Assembly (NCBI GenBank): GCA_021442455.1
Contig: JABUSY010000021.1
Location: forward strand, 16,630 to 80,629
Source of the DNA: Lachnospiraceae bacterium
Lineage (GTDB): Bacteria; Bacillota; Clostridia; Lachnospirales; Lachnospiraceae
Reading direction: 5' to 3'
DNA: 64,000 nt
The position numbers were made by a program, and so were the translations under genes. The number at the start of each line of letters is the position of its first letter. Positions within the stretch are counted from its first letter, which is position 1. Of this stretch, positions 16,456 to 41,920 are shown piece by piece. A model generated the notes under the pieces. It worked only from the letters and a program-made list of their open reading frames with translations, ran no database searches and had not been told where the DNA came from.

Positions 16456-17556
16456 ATGAAATTAGGTATTGTGGGGCTTCCTAATGTAGGAAAGAGTAGC
16501 CTTTTTAATTCTTTAACTAAAGCAGGAGTAGACTCTGGCAACTATCCGTTCTGTACCATTGATCCTAATGTGGGAATAGTACTGGTTCCGGATCATCGTC
16601 TTCAGCTTTTGGGGAATTTTAATCATTCCAAGAAGATAACGCCGGCCGCTGTGGAATTTGTGGATATTGCGGGATTGGTTAAAGGAGCTTCCAAGGGCGA
16701 AGGGCTTGGGAATCAGTTTTTGGCTCACATACGGGAGGTAGATGCGATCGTTCATGTAGTGCGCTGCTTTGAAGATGAAAATGTGATGCATGTTGATGGG
16801 AATATCAATCCATTGAGAGACATTGAAACGATTGATTTAGAATTGATTTTTTCCGATTTAGAAGTTCTGGAGAGGAGAATCTACAAGACTGGAAAGAGTG
16901 CTCGGGTGGATAAGACTGCGGCAAAAGAATTTGCCATGCAGGTGCGCCTGAAACAGCATCTGGAAGAAGGCAAGGACGCGCTTCTTTTTGAATTGGAAAA
17001 TGAAGATGAAAAATATTGGTTTACTGAATATAACCTGCTGACAGCCAAACCGGTTATTTATGCGGCGAATATCAGAGAAGATGATATGGAGGACAATGGG
17101 CATTCAAACGAGAATGTAGAAGCTATCCGGAAGTACGCGGACGATCACGGCAGTGAAGTATTCGTGATCTGCGCGAAAATGGAGGCGGAAATTTCAGAAC
17201 TGGACGATGATGGCAAGGGAGAATTTCTGGATGCTCTTGGATTGGAGGAGTCAAGCTTGGAAAAGCTAATCGAAGCTAGTTACCGTGTACTGGGTTGCAT
17301 GAGTTTCTTGACCAGCGGGGAGGAAGAGACTCGGGCGTGGACCATAAAGATGGGAACGAAAGCACCTCAGGCTGCCGGTAAGATCCATACAGATTTTGAG
17401 AGAGGTTTTATCAAAGCTGAGGTGGTGAATTATCAAGATCTTCTAGATGCCGGTTCTTATGCGGGAGCCAAAGAGAAAGGTTTGGTACGGATGGAAGGAA
17501 AAAATTATGTGGTTCGGGATGGAGATGTAATATTATTTCGATTTAATGTTAAATAA
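16456..17556 (+). CDS. ychF: Redox-regulated ATPase YchF
   Basis: GIVGLPNVGKS, NYPFCTIDPN, VDIAGLVKGASKGEGLGNQFL and the C-terminal TGS domain. Confidence 0.97.
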   Translation: MKLGIVGLPNVGKSSLFNSLTKAGVDSGNYPFCTIDPNVGIVLVPDHRLQLLGNFNHSKKITPAAVEFVDIAGLVKGASKGEGLGNQFLAHIREVDAIVHVVRCFEDENVMHVDGNINPLRDIETIDLELIFSDLEVLERRIYKTGKSARVDKTAAKEFAMQVRLKQHLEEGKDALLFELENEDEKYWFTEYNLLTAKPVIYAANIREDDMEDNGHSNENVEAIRKYADDHGSEVFVICAKMEAEISELDDDGKGEFLDALGLEESSLEKLIEASYRVLGCMSFLTSGEEETRAWTIKMGTKAPQAAGKIHTDFERGFIKAEVVNYQDLLDAGSYAGAKEKGLVRMEGKNYVVRDGDVILFRFNVK

Positions 17557-33430: not shown

Positions 33431-33447
33431 AAAATGTGGAGGCAAAG

Positions 33448-34332
33448 ATGAATTACGATTTTACGATTACCGGTCATACCGGTTTTACTGGCTTGTTAGG
33501 AAATCCTGTTACACACAGCCTTTCTCCTCTAATGCACAATGAGGCTTTCCGGATTCTTGATCTGGATTACGTATATTTATGTTTTAATGTAGGGGAAGAT
33601 ACCCTGGAAACTGCGGTTAAGGGGCTGATAGCTTGTGGGATTCGTGGATTTAACTTGACTATGCCTGATAAAAACCGAATGGCTGAGCTAGCAGATGAGC
33701 TTTCGTTAGCGGCACAAATGATCGGAGCTGTTAATACGGTTGTCAATGAGAGTGGAAAGCTTATGGGACACAATACTGACGGACTCGGTTTTATGCACTC
33801 TATGCGGGAAGTAGGATTTGATCCGAAGGGTCAGACTATGACGATATTCGGAGCGGGGGGGGCGGCTTCTGCCATTTGCGTTCAGGCGGCTTTGGACGGA
33901 ATTTAGATTTTGAATATATTTGCCCGCCCTTCCAGCCGTTTTCATCAGAGGACTTTACAGCTAGTGGATACGATTAACAGAACCACCGCTTGCAGGGCAG
34001 CACTTTACGATTTGGCGGATACAGCAGTGTTAAGATCATCTTTTCTGAATAGCACACTTGTGGTCAATGCCACAACGGTTGGTATGGCACCAAATATTAA
34101 TCATTCTGTTCTGGAAGATACTTCTTTATTTCATTCGGGATTGTTAGTCGCTGACATTATATATAATCCAAGAGAGACACAGTTTCTGTCTCGAGCGAAG
34201 GCAGCCGGATGCCGTACATTTAACGGACTACATATGCTGCTCTATCAGGGTGCGGAGGCATTCAGACTCTGGACAGGAAGGCAAATGCCAGTGAAAAATA
34301 TTAAAGAGAAGTATTTATCTCAATGTGTATAG
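33448..34332 (+). pseudogene. aroE: Shikimate/quinate dehydrogenase (AroE/YdiB-like) split by one in-frame TAG at 33904-33906
   Basis: LLGNPVTHSLSP, FNLTMPDK, NTDG and GAGGAA upstream; NATTVGM, DIIYNP and MLLYQGAEAF downstream in the same frame (DGI*ILNIFAR). GGAGG RBS before ATG 33448. Confidence 0.85.
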
Positions 34333-34343
34333 GAGAGCAATAC

Positions 34344-35099
34344 ATGATAGTTAAACATACAATTCAATTAAAAAAAACAATTTTGGGCGATGGATTCCCA
34401 AAAATTTGTGTGCCAGTCCTGGGAAGGACAAAGGAGGAGATAGTGAAACAAGCTCGTGTGGCTTCTGATGCAAAGGGAGATCTGGTTGAATGGAGAGCTG
34501 ATTTTTATAGAGACGTTACGGATTATGAGAAAGCTGCCGGAGTTTTGAGCACGTTATCTAAGATTTTGGGAAAGATTCCGCTTCTTTTTACTTTCAGGAC
34601 GGAGCGTGAAGGTGGAAATCGAGAAATTTCGATGGAAGAGTACAAAAAATTAAATCTCTGGGCGGCGTCTCGAACAGAGATAGATTTAATTGATGTAGAG
34701 GGAAGATGGCCTGAGTTTCAGGTTCATAAACTAATAGAAGCTGTTCACACTATGGGGAAACCGGTAGTGGCTTCCAGCCATTTTTTTGACAGAACGCCGG
34801 AGAGACAGGAGTTTATCTCTGTATTTGAAGAACTTTGCGACACGGGAGCGGAAATTTTGAAAGTTGCTGTTATGCCAAAAAACCGGGAGGACGTGCTGAA
34901 GCTCTTAAGTGTAACGCTGGAGATGGACCGTAAGCTGCACAATCCTTTGATATCTATCTCCATGGGGCGCCTGGGCAGTATTTCCAGAGTTAGCGGTCAT
35001 CTAACCGGATCAGCCATAACGTTCGGGTCAGCGGGAAACGTTTCGGCACCTGGTCAGCTGCCTGTGGACGAGCTGCGTCGAATTCAGGAATTGTTGTAA
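34344..35099 (+). CDS. aroD: Type I 3-dehydroquinate dehydratase
   Basis: PKICVP, VEWRAD, FTFRTEREGG, KVAVMP, SMGRLG and SAPGQ. The start was moved to ATG 34344. Confidence 0.95.
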   Translation: MIVKHTIQLKKTILGDGFPKICVPVLGRTKEEIVKQARVASDAKGDLVEWRADFYRDVTDYEKAAGVLSTLSKILGKIPLLFTFRTEREGGNREISMEEYKKLNLWAASRTEIDLIDVEGRWPEFQVHKLIEAVHTMGKPVVASSHFFDRTPERQEFISVFEELCDTGAEILKVAVMPKNREDVLKLLSVTLEMDRKLHNPLISISMGRLGSISRVSGHLTGSAITFGSAGNVSAPGQLPVDELRRIQELL

Positions 35100-36558
35100 G
35101 ATTTTCTTTCTTTATGACACATGAGTTTTGAAAAAATAAATATTTCCTGTACTTTATAGTGAAACTTATCTAAAAAGTCTTTCCTACTAAATACCATATT
35201 GTTTTATGTATATTTTATTATATTTAAAATAAAAAGCGTTTTTACAAAGATTATTGTTCATGTATCTTTTAGTGCTTTTTTAGTGATGGGGAGGCGTATG
35301 TAGATGTTCTTCTACAGGTTCTTCGGAATGTTGAAAATGAAAAGGTTTTTCGTTGAGGGGTACGATGGTATATCTTCTGATCATATTTGGTTATGTGGGT
35401 TTGCAATACCGATGAAGCAAGCTGGCAAAATCTATAGAGCTGTTGCTGTCCTAAAAAATTCCTGTAAAGAGAAAAAAGAAATTTATGATACAAGGAATGG
35501 GCTATGAAATGGCACTGTCTGTTAGTTTCTGGTCAAAACATGCTTGTCTTGAAAATGTCAAAAACACAACAAGCATTTTGCTTATGTTATATGGAAGAGA
35601 TTGTAATTATATTTCGTTTCAGAGTGTTGAATACCAGAGAAGTTTTTACAGCTGTCGTTTTAGATTTAAGCTATTCGATGATTTGGAATCAAACTCTGAT
35701 CGATAAACAGTTGAGGAGAGTGAATCATACTTATACATGCTGCATTGTCAAAGCGATTTCGGATACGCATGTTACCCCCCCCAATTTTTTTCGGGTGTTT
35801 TTTGGTAAAATCGATGAGCTGTAATATATAGGCGGAACGGCTGGAGTGTTGTTGTTTCTTTCCCAGGAGGCAGAAGCAAAACAATTACAGGGCTTGTATA
35901 TTTGAAAAACACAGAAGTCTAGTCTGATTGATTATTGAAAATAATTTTTGTTTAGGTGTCTATATCGACCAGAAATTTAACAATATAGCAGTAAAAATGG
36001 AGAGGAAAATCTGATCTCTATCGGTATCATAGAGTGTATGCTTACCGATGTGTTGAAAATTCCATATTTTGTATCTGCGCAGGAACAAGTAAGACGAGAA
36101 TGGAGGAGTTGAAGAATTTTCTTACACTGAAGATTGTATATGCGTAAAGAACAGTTAATATTCAAGTTTTTAAAACGATTTAAATCCTTTACCTTGCTTT
36201 CACGAAAGTGTAATCTGTATAATTACAGACGGTAATGCTCGCATAATGTTAAGTTATTGGCGCTAGTCTTTCTTTATTGAATTTTTATGTTTATTGTTTA
36301 AGCTCATCGTAGTTCTTATCTTTGGTGAGAGTATTATACCTCTGGCATAGTCAAAAAACGGAGGAAGACCTTTAGTAGTTCTGTCTGGTTAAGTAGACTT
36401 TTGCAAGGTTATTAGTAGTTTATGTTTTCCATACGAATTTCCATATTTTCTAACCACACAAGCATAAATTTATGAATAATTAATAAAGGATGAATTGATT
36501 TTATTGCAAAAAAGCGATACAGTATTATCGTTAGTATTTTGGAAAGGGCAGGTTTTGA

Positions 36559-36966
36559 ATGAATAAATTAAGGAGTAAACTTCAAAATTTTATGGAAGGA
36601 CGTTATGGAATAGATGAGATGGGAAGTTTTTTGCTGTTTCTGTCTCTTGGAATGATGCTGGTTTCCTGTTTTTCGTCTATTTTTATTTTGTATCTTATAA
36701 CTGTATTGTTTCTGGTATGTGGGTATTTCAGAATATTTTCTAGACATCAGACGAAACGCTGGAAGGAAAATCAGAAGTTCCTAAAAGTTAAAAAACGATT
36801 TTTAGGATTTTTTCGAAAAAAAATTCAGCCCTTTAGAGATAAAGAGCATTGCTATTTTCAATGTCCTAATTGTCATTGTAAAAAACTGTTGCGTGTTCCA
36901 AAGGGTAAAGGAAATATTTCTATACATTGTCCTCAGTGTCATATGGATTTTGTTAAACGTACCTGA
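36559..36966 (+). CDS. Conserved hypothetical membrane protein with C-terminal CxxC...CxxC Zn ribbon
   Basis: Intact 135-aa ORF: GRYGIDE, two TM helices, CPNC...LRVPKGKG.ISIHCPQC. Confidence 0.8.
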   Translation: MNKLRSKLQNFMEGRYGIDEMGSFLLFLSLGMMLVSCFSSIFILYLITVLFLVCGYFRIFSRHQTKRWKENQKFLKVKKRFLGFFRKKIQPFRDKEHCYFQCPNCHCKKLLRVPKGKGNISIHCPQCHMDFVKRT

Positions 36967-36977
36967 GGGGGAATTGA

Positions 36978-37817
36978 ATGTTCGGATATATTACAGTGAA
37001 TAAGAGAGAATTAAAGGTTAAAGATTTTGAACGGTACCTTTCTTATTACTGCGGGGTTTGCCAAGATCTGAAGCAATCTTGTGGGGAATTTGGCAGAATA
37101 ACGCTCACTTATGATATGACTTTTCTAGCGATTCTTCTCACAGGACTTTATGAGGAAAAGAACAGTCAGGAGCGGCATTTTTGTCTTCTGCATCCTATGC
37201 ATAAGCGGCCTTGTAGAAGAAATCGTTATACCAGCTATGCGGCAGATATGAATATCTTGCTAGTTTATCATAATCTGATGGACAATTGGCAGGATGAGAA
37301 GAAAAGGGGAAGCTTGGGTGCGGCATGGTTTCTGAGAAGATTTTATCTGAAAATCGCATCCAGTTACCCGCGGCAGGTGAAGGCCATACGTCGTTATTTA
37401 AACGAGCTTCATAAAGTAGAAGAGGTATGGGCGGAAGATATTGATCTTGCTGCGGGGTTAACAGGTAGGATGATGGAAGAAATTTTTGTATACCAGGAAG
37501 ATATATGGAGCAGTGATTTAAGGAAGATAGGGTTTTACCTGGGAAAGTTTATTTATCTGATGGATGCCTATGAAGATTTGGAAGAGGATCAGAAGATGGG
37601 TACTTACAATCCGTTTTTGTCGGTTGTCGGCCGTTCTAACTATGAAGAGAGTGTATTTCAGATATTAACGATGATGGCTGCGTCGGCTTCCAAGGCTTTT
37701 GAGAAGATTCCTATTCTGAAAAACGTGGACATTTTAAGAAATATATTGTATGCTGGTATTTGGATGAAATATAGAATGCTGAAGAGCAAAAAAAGCAAGC
37801 ATGAGGAGAATCAATAA
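36978..37817 (+). CDS. DUF5685-like all-alpha protein with two Asp-rich motifs
   Basis: Intact 279-aa ORF: MFGYI, YCGVC, YDMTFLAILL, C.LHP, DNWQDE and YLMDAYEDLEED. The family name comes from memory. Confidence 0.75.
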   Translation: MFGYITVNKRELKVKDFERYLSYYCGVCQDLKQSCGEFGRITLTYDMTFLAILLTGLYEEKNSQERHFCLLHPMHKRPCRRNRYTSYAADMNILLVYHNLMDNWQDEKKRGSLGAAWFLRRFYLKIASSYPRQVKAIRRYLNELHKVEEVWAEDIDLAAGLTGRMMEEIFVYQEDIWSSDLRKIGFYLGKFIYLMDAYEDLEEDQKMGTYNPFLSVVGRSNYEESVFQILTMMAASASKAFEKIPILKNVDILRNILYAGIWMKYRMLKSKKSKHEENQ

Positions 37818-37820
37818 CGA

Positions 37821-38456
37821 ATGCAGGATCCATATGAGGTACTAGGTGTATCAAGAGATGACAGTATAGAAAAAATAAAAAGAGCTTACCGAACTTTGAG
37901 TCGGAAATATCATCCAGATGCTAACATGAATAATCCTAATAAGGCTCAGGCGGAAGAAAAATTCAAACAAATACAGCAGGCGTATAAACAGATTATAGAT
38001 GAAATAGAAACTGATACTTTTTCTGGTACGTATGAAAGTGGAAGTTATGGATACGGAAATGACGTGAAGCTGCAGGCTGTGGCCAATTACATTAACAATG
38101 GTCATTACATGGAGGCCATGAATATACTAAACAATATTTCAAATCGAAATGGCACTTGGTATTATCTGCATGCGCTTGCCAATGCAGGAATGGGCAATAA
38201 TGTAAATGCTTTGGAAGATGCACAGATAGCTGTTAATTTGGAGCCGGAAAACTTGCAGTTTCAGAGGCTATTGCAGAGTTTATCCAGGAATAGTGAATGG
38301 TACTCCAATATAGGAGGCAATTACGATATCTGTAACTGCGAAGAAGGAAAGATGAGTAAGGTTTGCTGTTACTGTTGTATGATTAGATCTTTGTGCAACG
38401 GAAGCTGCTGTCCATATGGAAGCTGCCGTCCATATGGGAAAGTATGTTGTTTTTAA
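37821..38456 (+). CDS. J-domain co-chaperone with TPR-like helices and a Cys-rich C-terminal tail
   Basis: DPYEVLGV...KYHPD, WYYLHALANAGMG, and 12 Cys in the last 41 aa. Confidence 0.88.
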   Translation: MQDPYEVLGVSRDDSIEKIKRAYRTLSRKYHPDANMNNPNKAQAEEKFKQIQQAYKQIIDEIETDTFSGTYESGSYGYGNDVKLQAVANYINNGHYMEAMNILNNISNRNGTWYYLHALANAGMGNNVNALEDAQIAVNLEPENLQFQRLLQSLSRNSEWYSNIGGNYDICNCEEGKMSKVCCYCCMIRSLCNGSCCPYGSCRPYGKVCCF

Positions 38457-39312
38457 AAGAATTTAATATGAGTACAGGAAAAGCTGTTATATTAAAACAT
38501 TCTTTCTATAATCTATTGAAGAGAAAGCACTGAAGTATCTGCATCATAGATGCAACGAATATTGGATTTCTAGAAAAATATTCAGAGAACATGTTTATAT
38601 AACAGCAAATAGCAAAACTGAATATTTTTACTTTGACGACATCAACAAAATTCTGGAATAGGGAATGTGCAAATCTTTAAAGGTAGGTCCAAATATGGAA
38701 GTATCTTGATTACGGAGAGCTTTTTTACTCTCAGGGCTTTCATTTTCAGGAACGGGGAAGAGGTGCTGAAGGAATAAGTCTTACATTGTAAAAAGGAAAT
38801 GTAGCATATGTGATAGGCATTTTGTATTATTATGGAAAAATAAATGTAAAATGCACACCTGGGAAGAGTATCTAAAAACCTTCAGTCCGAAACATGTAGT
38901 CAAGTTCCATGAAAATAACAAGGAGAATTTGAGGTATGATTTTATGATGGCTTTTGATGGTGAGATATAATTTACTGAATGCCTATCATCAATCATATTT
39001 TTTTACTAGAAAGATGATAGTTTTGTCGAAAAAACATTGATGGAGAAAAGAACCGGAAGCTATATGTGATAGAGTAGAAGCAGAAAAATTTCAATAGATC
39101 TCTACAATAAAAAAATCGCAGACCACTAGAGAGCAGTTGATGGGAGAATTACGGCATACGTGTATAATGTCTGTGATTGACAATTGTGGAATTTGCTATT
39201 ATGAATGATGTGATAAACAGTGTGATTACGGCATGATTGTAGCGGTCCTCATTTTCTGTTGGTTTCGGTGGAATTTTGCTGAGATCGGGGGCGATAGGAA
39301 GGAGAGAAAAAT

Positions 39313-41219: not shown

Positions 41220-41920
41220 GTATGAACTTTATCTCGTCAACCAACCTGGCGAAGGGCATGAGTCTTTGAAATATGAGCCAGAAAATTGATATGAAAGACT
41301 TGCGATATCACAATATCGGAGATTAACTGATCAGTTTGAAAGTTGACTGCATATTTTGTCAATGAAAGAATTTAAATCATCAGTTAAGTGGCGCTCACTT
41401 TCAGGAGATTCTCTGTGTCATATTTCAAGTCCTCCCCTAATCATGGAAGGACTTGATGAAGTTTCTAAAAAGACAACGTTTCAATTTCTTTTATACGGAT
41501 GGAAATATCTTTATATTCATCATGGTGCTTATCTGTTGAATAGATGTGCAATTAGCGCTCATCATATGGTGAAAGGTGCATTGATTATGTTTTGATTGAA
41601 AAGTAGCACAGTTTTGAAATTGCTCAAGAGGGGACATCGTTTGGTCAGCAATGATGTATGCAGAAAAGAATATTCTATGTCCATTGTTAGTTGAACACTA
41701 TGGTTTGAGCTTCCTCACTATTATTCCTAAATAGCTAGCGAGCGTATTCAAAAACTTAAAATTGGATCAGCATTGAAGATGATATAACTTTTAACTCTTT
41801 TCCTGAGAGAGGAGAATATATATACCATGCTGAATGGTGTACCTAATGAAAAATTCTGAGAGCTGGGCTCAAATGGTACAATAGAAGGATAGCAAGAACT
41901 CCTTCAAGCTCATTGTTGAT
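41220..41920 (+). pseudogene. hprK: HPr kinase/phosphorylase remnant
   Basis: PEIDMKDLR near the start and KSSTVLKLLKRGHRLVSNDV (~41598-41660; consensus GKSEAALELIKRGHRLVxDD). Syntenic after uvrC. Confidence 0.8.

Follow-up and report, generated by a model that had tools for sequence, protein, structure and literature searches.

A conserved operon of a zinc-ribbon membrane protein, a DUF5685 protein and a Cys-tailed J protein retained in a decaying Lachnospiraceae genome

A three-gene operon was analyzed in a window of 64,000 nucleotides (the whole stretch of DNA considered here; contig JABUSY010000021.1, forward-strand positions 16,630 to 80,629) from the reduced genome of a Candidatus Scatomonas (Lachnospiraceae). 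With a probability of approximately 0.9, the operon is an intact and expressed copy, kept by selection, of a widespread but unstudied module of the Clostridia, which combines a zinc-ribbon membrane protein (gene 1), a DUF5685 protein with a predicted class I isoprenoid-synthase fold (gene 2) and a co-chaperone of DnaK with a J domain, a tetratricopeptide repeat (TPR) domain and a Cys-rich tail (gene 3). The further proposal that DUF5685 prenylates Cys residues of the tail, and so fixes the co-chaperone to the membrane next to the zinc-ribbon protein for the activation of DnaK there, is tentative and given roughly one chance in three. The module is real, conserved and uncharacterized, and the proposed mechanism is plausible.

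A literature search retrieved no functional study of DUF5685, which one paper mentions as a list item only, and none of bacterial Cys-tailed J proteins. The fold, the motifs and the partners of DUF5685 are in no published description that was found, and the view of the preliminary description, a note made from the sequence of the window, that the system is undescribed is upheld. Two observations are new here: the alternation and mutual exclusion of two types of J protein beside the zinc-ribbon gene, and the retention of the operon at housekeeping constraint in a decaying, non-sporulating genome.

Retention of the operon in decaying DNA

In the list of open reading frames (ORFs), the genes follow one another on the forward strand as gene 1 (36559-36966, 135 residues), gene 2 (36978-37817, 279 residues) and gene 3 (37821-38456, 211 residues). 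Genes 1 and 2 are separated by 11 nt and genes 2 and 3 by 3 nt; the stop codon of gene 2 occupies 37815-37817, and the ATG of gene 3 begins at 37821. The three intact, tightly coupled ORFs of the preliminary description, each with a ribosome-binding site, are exact in their coordinates and gaps.

Purifying selection, which had been supposed from the intact frames, is supported by ratios of nonsynonymous to synonymous substitution (dN/dS) of 0.10-0.18, which are far from 1 and in the range of the control genes uvrC and murD. The reference was the closest congener (genome G003), from which the window differs by a dS of 0.83-1.34. The dN/dS value is 0.18 for the zinc-ribbon gene, 0.10 for the DUF5685 gene and 0.10 for the J-protein gene, compared with 0.094 for uvrC and 0.114 for murD; the corresponding dN values on the branch of the window genome are 0.115-0.13, 0.064-0.067, 0.10, 0.075-0.076 and 0.070-0.078. 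The whole lineage is accelerated, with a branch dN of approximately three times that of its sister and a still higher excess for uvrC and the zinc-ribbon gene, and within this accelerated lineage DUF5685 is constrained as tightly as housekeeping genes. All family-invariant residues are retained in the alignments of the proteins of the operon. Additionally, a 98%-identical contig of the European Nucleotide Archive (ENA), which represents a second strain, differs from the DUF5685 gene of the window in codons 150-279 by 11 synonymous and 4 conservative substitutions; this contig has approximately 1.5x coverage, and its second half alone was used because clustered T/G differences in the first half strike invariant residues and are probable errors.

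Transcription of the operon has weak but positive evidence. RNA contigs with 100% identity, from four gut metatranscriptome runs of one study, extend across the boundary between genes 2 and 3 (37649-37862) and also represent a part of gene 3 (38104-38408) and uvrC, whereas the same search returned no contig over the dead flanks, including 38457-39312.

These results bear on the explanation that the genes are chance survivors, intact merely because decay has not yet reached them and already without function in this genome. The fast evolution of the lineage, the in-frame indels by which the zinc ribbon and the tail are peculiar to this lineage, and the D103N replacement in motif 1 of DUF5685 would be in keeping with such a history. 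However, housekeeping-level dN/dS values persist over a dS of approximately 0.8-1.3, every family-invariant residue is kept, no frameshift or stop has arisen although both flanks have decayed, RNA contigs were found, and the differences of the second strain are mostly synonymous. Chance survival is already largely refuted and effectively excluded.

The extent of the decay is evident at the level of the genome and the window. The assembly comprises 1.38 Mb at 98% completeness, compared with 2.3-3.9 Mb for genomes of the same genus; ORFs of at least 100 residues cover only 55% of the window versus 84-94% of the loci of relatives, and the GC content is 37% versus 44-56%. Upstream of the operon, tblastn with the proteins of G003 recovered an eroded spoIIGA remnant (35172-35516, forward strand; 33% identity over 123 residues, E 4e-10) and an eroded sigE remnant in several frames (35727-36105, forward strand; E 4e-9 and 6e-7), so the DNA described as dead on this side is confirmed as such. 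Downstream, the 0.85-kb spacer ahead of uvrC (38457-39312) contains no ORF above chance, and tblastn revealed no remnant in it of the genes that lie 3' of the operon in congeners, even at E values up to 1. In another congener (G002), a radical-SAM gene and ftsH are situated between the J gene and uvrC. The flanks have thus decayed to 30-50% identity or beyond recognition and the operon is free of frameshifts and stops; its description as an island in decaying DNA is correct.

The dead spoIIGA and sigE genes next to a retained operon indicate that the operon is not specific to sporulation and that its role is vegetative. A sporulation role was considered and is ruled out, as the operon outlives both genes in the same genome. 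With about half of the ancestral gene content decayed and the operon held at the constraint of uvrC and murD, the genome constitutes a natural experiment, which argues that the operon matters to the cell.

Several other features of the region were recorded. Intact spoIIGA and sigE genes are located approximately 7 kb 5' of the operon in G003, and the genes of an ABC transporter, an ammonium transporter and a sigma factor that lie between them and the operon there are gone from the window genome. The frame of aroE (shikimate dehydrogenase) is cut by a single stop into two ORFs (33436-33906 and 33910-34332), and aroD (34323-35099), the next gene, is intact. Likeness to HprK is reduced to 20 residues at 41599-41658 (65% identity to the congener protein), 3' of the intact uvrC; this weak remnant is all that was seen of hprK, which had been listed among the discarded genes.

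The signals for expression are modest. A purine-rich, RBS-like stretch, GGAAAGGGCAGG, lies at 36541-36552, 7-18 nt ahead of the ATG of gene 1 at 36559, and is a weak match to a ribosome-binding site (RBS). RBS-like stretches were also read from the sequence for gene 2 (GGGGGA, 36967-36972, within the 11-nt gap) and for gene 3 (GAGGAG, 37803-37808, within the 3' end of gene 2), all on the forward strand. No sigma-70-type promoter was found at the scan threshold 5' of gene 1, and the promoter and terminator scan yielded nothing at threshold 5' of gene 1 or 3' of gene 3, with counts below the shuffled expectation.

The proteins of the module and their partners

Gene 2 encodes a full-length member of Pfam DUF5685 (PF18937; E 2.6e-105, 352.1 bits against a cut-off of 26.7), with residues 1-266 aligned to positions 1-271 of the 272 of the model. 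Its AlphaFold2 (AF2) model has a mean predicted local distance difference test (pLDDT) score of 91.5 and a predicted template modeling (pTM) score of 0.90. In a Foldseek search of the PDB, the top 50 matches all belong to the trans-polyprenyl diphosphate synthases, to related isoprenoid synthases or to the prenyltransferase MoeN5, at a probability of 1.00 and template modeling (TM) scores of 0.49-0.63. On the basis of this model, a class I isoprenoid-synthase fold, all-helical as in IPR008949, is confidently predicted for DUF5685. By sequence, gene 2 has no match to the polyprenyl synthase family PF00348 at E values up to 0.1, and no membrane segment is predicted in it. A global hhalign comparison of DUF5685 with polyprenyl synthases produced a nonsense alignment and was rejected.

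The residues invariant in both subfamilies of DUF5685 are C25, G26, C28, D46, C69, D102, D106, E148, D196, D200, D204 and N211 (window numbering), and they include two Asp motifs and a site of three Cys. For motif 1, the consensus of the family is DDWxD; the subfamily that is fused to a tail (described below) has DDxxD, and the window protein reads DNWQD. Motif 2 is D-x3-D-x3-D (D196, D200 and D204), spaced like the NSE/DTE metal triad of class I terpene synthases. In the predicted model, both motifs are located at the C-terminal ends of long helices, a statement that concerns their place on the helices only. The Cys site consists of an invariant CGxC (C25 and C28) and C69. The two invariant Asp motifs on the modeled isoprenoid-synthase fold point to diphosphate chemistry.

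The protein of gene 3 begins with a J domain (PF00226; E 1.8e-19, 70 bits against a cut-off of 27.8) that contains the sequence KYHPDAN, with the HPD motif at residues 31-33. A short Gly/Tyr linker and a TPR-like domain at approximately residues 85-165 (match at residues 115-154) follow, and no hydrophobic transmembrane segment is present in the protein. The Cys-rich tail (38331-38453, forward strand) contains 12 Cys among 41 residues, and isolated tails matched no Pfam family. An in-frame six-residue repeat at approximately 38400-38435 (GSCCPY/GSCRPY) adds Cys to the tail and is present only in this genome in comparison with five congeners. The tail endings differ widely among relatives, whereas a Cys-rich tail as such is found in every partner protein of DUF5685 that was examined, and the motif C.DCCCECMGGDLI.CC is common to many lineages. 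The tails of Lachnospiraceae are hydrophobic rather than acidic and resemble a hydrophobic Cys-rich helix. In four loci (L110, L122, L123 and L126), the partner lacks a J domain and still possesses the TPR domain and the tail.

The protein of gene 1 has an N-terminal GRYGxD motif, one long hydrophobic stretch (residues 20-61) that is interpreted as a hairpin of two helices, and, at the C-terminus, a CPxC...RVPKGKG...CPxC zinc ribbon that is predicted to lie in the cytosol. In an alignment of 24 sequences (A4), the invariant residues are G14, R15, G17, D19, R58, S61, R67, N71, C102, P103, C105, R112, P114, G116, K117, G118, C124, P125, C127 and F131. No Pfam or NCBIfam model matches the protein at its cut-off. 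An in-frame insertion of two residues, HC, behind the first CPxC (36871-36876) is unique to this copy.

The association of these genes is highly conserved. Among 80 Lachnospiraceae loci, DUF5685 adjoins a Cys-tailed J gene in 77 of the 78 that are complete, with the zinc-ribbon gene upstream in 65. All 25 of the examined close DUF5685 members from other families of Clostridia have a Cys-tailed gene directly downstream, and in seven the zinc-ribbon gene follows behind it. In relatives, 19 genomes contain both the zinc-ribbon gene and DUF5685, three contain each alone and 16 contain neither (Fisher 7e-6). In 401 sampled genomes of the phylum, the corresponding counts are 17 with both, 13 with the zinc-ribbon gene only, 33 with DUF5685 only and 338 with neither (Fisher 1e-9); the co-occurrence includes three genomes in which the genes are unlinked. 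The trio is therefore co-conserved in relatives, a check on which the preliminary description had made its proposal depend, as it had on transcription, for which RNA contigs of genes 2 and 3 were found, and on a dN/dS away from 1; none of the three checks refutes the proposal. The importance that had been ascribed to the operon is supported by its housekeeping-level constraint and limited by the occurrence of DUF5685 in 50 of the 401 genomes (31 of 271 genera); because only approximately 12% of the sampled genomes of the phylum carry it, the module is not generally essential. As a separate observation, the locus of Anaerocolumna xylanovorans (L093) is the sole complete Lachnospiraceae locus that has the zinc-ribbon gene and DUF5685 with no J gene or Cys-rich ORF within 5 kb.

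Other lineages present rearranged versions of the module. In a family of 13 database members, found first in Anoxybacter fermentans (L116, 4053-6564), one protein combines DUF5685 with a conserved tail rich in Cys and Asp (..AICCDAADCDCDALEC..CELxECFC), and the fusion gene adjoins a polyprenyl synthase (PF00348) gene. In lineages whose tails carry CCCECMGGDLI (motif C.DCCCECMGGDLI.CC), the zinc-ribbon protein is replaced by a protein of approximately 170 residues with four to five transmembrane segments and weak likeness to DUF2232 (E 2e-4 to 4e-3; L103, L106, L107, L109, L110, L112-L115, L126 and L129). Divergent DUF5685-like genes of 334-409 codons (L117, L119, L120, L121 and L125) lie in operons with a 510-residue Hsp70 paralogue, a DUF2232 membrane protein, a small unknown protein and a polyprenyl-synthase-like PF00348 protein in which the second Asp motif has degenerated to NDxNN; no Cys-tailed gene is near these five loci. 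The source genome itself retains a single PF00348 polyprenyl synthase gene and a single intact dnaK.

In seven genomes of five families that have no DUF5685, the zinc-ribbon gene adjoins a different J protein of approximately 250 residues. In this alternative protein, two to three transmembrane helices at the N-terminus are followed by a charged coil, a Gly/Tyr/Gln linker and, at the C-terminus, an HPD-containing J domain; the family is unnamed, and its loci are L155 (4052-5246), L161, L162, L163, L165, L166 and L168. A profile of the alternative J protein detected full-length copies in nine of the 401 genomes, of which none contains DUF5685 and eight contain the zinc-ribbon gene. The 30 genomes with the zinc-ribbon gene are divided into 17 with DUF5685, eight with the transmembrane J protein, none with both and five with neither (hypergeometric P 2.2e-4, without correction for shared ancestry). 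No third type of partner was seen beside stand-alone zinc-ribbon genes. The Cys tail and DUF5685 can be read as a membrane anchor because the transmembrane J protein takes their place beside the zinc ribbon, and the alternation predicts that the tail and the enzyme together constitute such an anchor. Most simply, these gene arrangements can be read to mean that the working partner of the zinc-ribbon protein is a J protein at the membrane, whose location would be provided either by transmembrane helices or by a Cys tail and DUF5685. The membrane-anchored, DnaK-recruiting module that had been suggested as an example thus gains comparative support, in that a transmembrane J protein pairs with the zinc ribbon where DUF5685 is missing. 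Conversely, the suggestion that DUF5685 is a client enzyme of that module finds no support, as its fold, its Asp motifs, the Cys-tail fusions and the polyprenyl synthase neighbors point to an action on or with the tail.

Possible functions of the module

In the proposed mechanism, both Asp motifs of DUF5685, together with Mg2+, would bind a prenyl diphosphate, with the prenyl donor supplied by the single remaining polyprenyl synthase of the cell. DUF5685 would then move the prenyl group onto Cys of the tail encoded by the neighboring gene, and its conserved metal site of three Cys may serve to activate the thiol. The lipidated tail would keep the J protein at the membrane, next to the zinc-ribbon protein, where its HPD motif would turn on the single DnaK of the cell for membrane-proximal clients. 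The Cys-tailed protein, always adjacent or fused, is the candidate substrate. That DUF5685 is a protein-cysteine prenyltransferase on a class I isoprenoid-synthase fold, with the Cys string of a DnaK co-chaperone as its dedicated substrate, is somewhat doubtful and a shade less probable than the anchoring scheme as a whole. If the proposal is right, gut Clostridia lipid-anchor an Hsp70 co-chaperone at the membrane beside a zinc-ribbon receptor. The pairing, conserved in thousands of gut anaerobes, of a protein that resembles prenyl enzymes with a Cys-tailed DnaK co-chaperone offers a concrete and testable candidate for cysteine prenylation in bacteria.

A number of observations weigh against this proposal. 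Binding of prenyl diphosphate or modification by DUF5685 is inferred from the modeled fold and its motifs. The DUF5685 profile gave a chance match only against solved structures by sequence (E 5.4), and a local hhalign comparison with polyprenyl synthases on wider alignments reached a probability of 15%, with motif 2 placed on the second Asp-rich motif and motif 1 unaligned; because this value is too weak, homology to polyprenyl synthases by sequence cannot be claimed. In the window protein, codon 103 (37284-37286) encodes Asn instead of Asp in motif 1; this replacement is common to three of the 32 other aligned members and is therefore probably tolerated. A fourth metal ligand could be His72, but the fusion subfamily does not retain it, so the metal-like site consists of the three Cys. 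The last residues of the tail in the window protein, ...GKVCCF, place Val at position -4 and do not form a CaaX box. The best-conserved tail motifs (DCCCECMGGDLI and CCDAADCDCD) are acidic and Cys-rich, and such motifs fit metal binding at least as well as lipidation. An AF2 model of a natural fusion of the Anoxybacter family, used as a stand-in for the complex, is confident for the enzyme domain and has a pLDDT of 33-41 in the tail; it decides nothing on the mechanism because the tail is left unplaced. Additionally, the count behind the exclusion of the two J proteins is small and uncorrected for shared ancestry, and the RNA evidence consists of a few short, low-depth contigs from one study, for which DNA carry-over is possible.

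The acidic Cys motifs lead to an alternative in which the Cys/Asp tail binds Zn, an Fe-S cluster or Cu, DUF5685 is a metalloenzyme or a client, and its cofactor is delivered, inserted or protected by the J protein together with DnaK, much as HscB and HscA act for IscU. This alternative is close to the client enzyme with metal or redox sensing of the preliminary description, and such sensing by the cysteines may hold only in the form of this rival. The conserved motifs C.DCCCECMGGDLI.CC and CCDAADCDCDALEC, the invariant CGxC and third Cys of DUF5685, the direct fusion of the tail to the enzyme in one family and the zinc ribbon of the third protein are consistent with a metal center, and HscB is a generally known precedent for a J protein dedicated to cluster transfer. 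However, this explanation accounts neither for the transmembrane J protein that replaces the Cys-tailed J protein and DUF5685 beside the zinc ribbon nor for the polyprenyl synthase neighbors; the tails of Lachnospiraceae are hydrophobic and not acidic, the pair of invariant Asp motifs and the isoprenoid-synthase fold that carries them suggest diphosphate chemistry, and the HscB model matches gene 3 in the J region only and below its cut-off. A metal-centered function is the main rival, and a live one, although rather improbable and about one step below the prenyltransferase assignment; if it were true, the module would still be a new J-protein and DnaK system dedicated to a metalloenzyme.

The class I fold with its intact Asp motifs is also compatible with an enzyme that makes or remodels a membrane isoprenoid, with no protein modified, to which the J protein and the zinc-ribbon protein would be escorts that assemble or regulate it at the membrane; the J protein would then reach the membrane by a hydrophobic or S-acylated Cys-rich helix, to which the tails of Lachnospiraceae are akin. 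The PF00348 neighbors in distant lineages and the constant presence of a small membrane protein, of either the zinc-ribbon type or the DUF2232-like type of approximately 170 residues, agree with such a role. It does not explain why enzyme and tail are so strictly paired, one to one, why the two are fused in some proteins, or why DUF5685 and the Cys tail are lost together in genomes that rely on a transmembrane J protein, and the lack of a predicted membrane segment in DUF5685 is also at odds with it. An enzyme of lipid metabolites with a chaperone escort is accordingly judged unlikely, slightly more so than the metal center.

Comparison with known systems

The closest functional parallels to the proposed prenylation are enzymes of the trans-IDS fold (IDS, isoprenyl diphosphate synthase) that prenylate a peptide encoded by a neighboring gene, namely ComQ, which acts on ComX in Bacillus, PalQ and the P domain of ChrPC (PMC13290415, PMC10853753, PMC5331326). 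DUF5685 resembles them in the predicted class I isoprenoid fold, in a candidate substrate encoded beside the enzyme, which would be modified near its C-terminus, and in Asp-rich motifs that would bind a prenyl diphosphate. Every characterized trans-IDS-like peptide prenyltransferase acts on tryptophan and not on cysteine, which is a further point against cysteine as the acceptor, and a conserved Gln immediately ahead of the second Asp motif serves in tryptophan recognition (PMC13290415). In contrast, DUF5685 reads FIYLMDAYED at this place, with no Gln ahead of motif 2. The enzymes of the ComQ type (IPR033965) belong in or near the polyprenyl synthase family, whereas DUF5685, with no match to PF00348, falls outside it. 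Their substrates are short secreted peptides, whereas the candidate acceptor here is a Cys cluster on a cytosolic co-chaperone of 211 residues, and the Cys metal site of DUF5685 is an additional difference.

HscB and HscA serve IscU in cofactor delivery. Gene 3 differs from HscB in that the model TIGR00714 matches it in the J region only, with 23.2 bits where the cut-off is 46.75. Bacterial J proteins that are anchored in the membrane include DjlA, as well as DjlB and DjlC, which act with HscC in Escherichia coli. The alternative partner of the zinc ribbon, with its N-terminal transmembrane helices and C-terminal J domain, resembles DjlA, whereas gene 3 lacks a transmembrane helix, has its J domain at the N-terminus and matches the DjlA model NF006948 with 38 bits against a cut-off of 162, again in the J region only. 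Gene 3 is also distinguished from DjlA by its companions, DUF5685 and the zinc-ribbon membrane protein.

In architecture, the nearest parallels to gene 3 are the cysteine string protein (CSP) of animals and farnesylated Ydj1/DNAJA. In CSP, a run of Cys carries lipid and holds the co-chaperone on a membrane for Hsp70 recruitment (PMC9712954). The protein of gene 3 likewise has an N-terminal J domain with HPD and a later run of Cys, as in CSPalpha/DNAJC5, and beyond the J domain there is no sign of common descent with CSP or Ydj1. CSP is palmitoylated by DHHC enzymes, and an alpha/beta zinc prenyltransferase attaches farnesyl to the CaaX box of Ydj1/DNAJA. Both types of enzyme are absent here, as is a CaaX box; instead, the J protein has a TPR domain and a dedicated neighboring enzyme of another fold. 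DUF5685 does not have the alpha/beta heterodimer fold of farnesyltransferase (FTase) and geranylgeranyltransferase (GGTase), and its fold search returns class I isoprenoid synthases only. To our knowledge, bacteria are not known to prenylate Cys of their own proteins. If the proposed prenylation holds, the module would be the first case of S-prenylation by a bacterium of its own protein and a convergent bacterial counterpart of the farnesylated and palmitoylated J proteins of eukaryotes.

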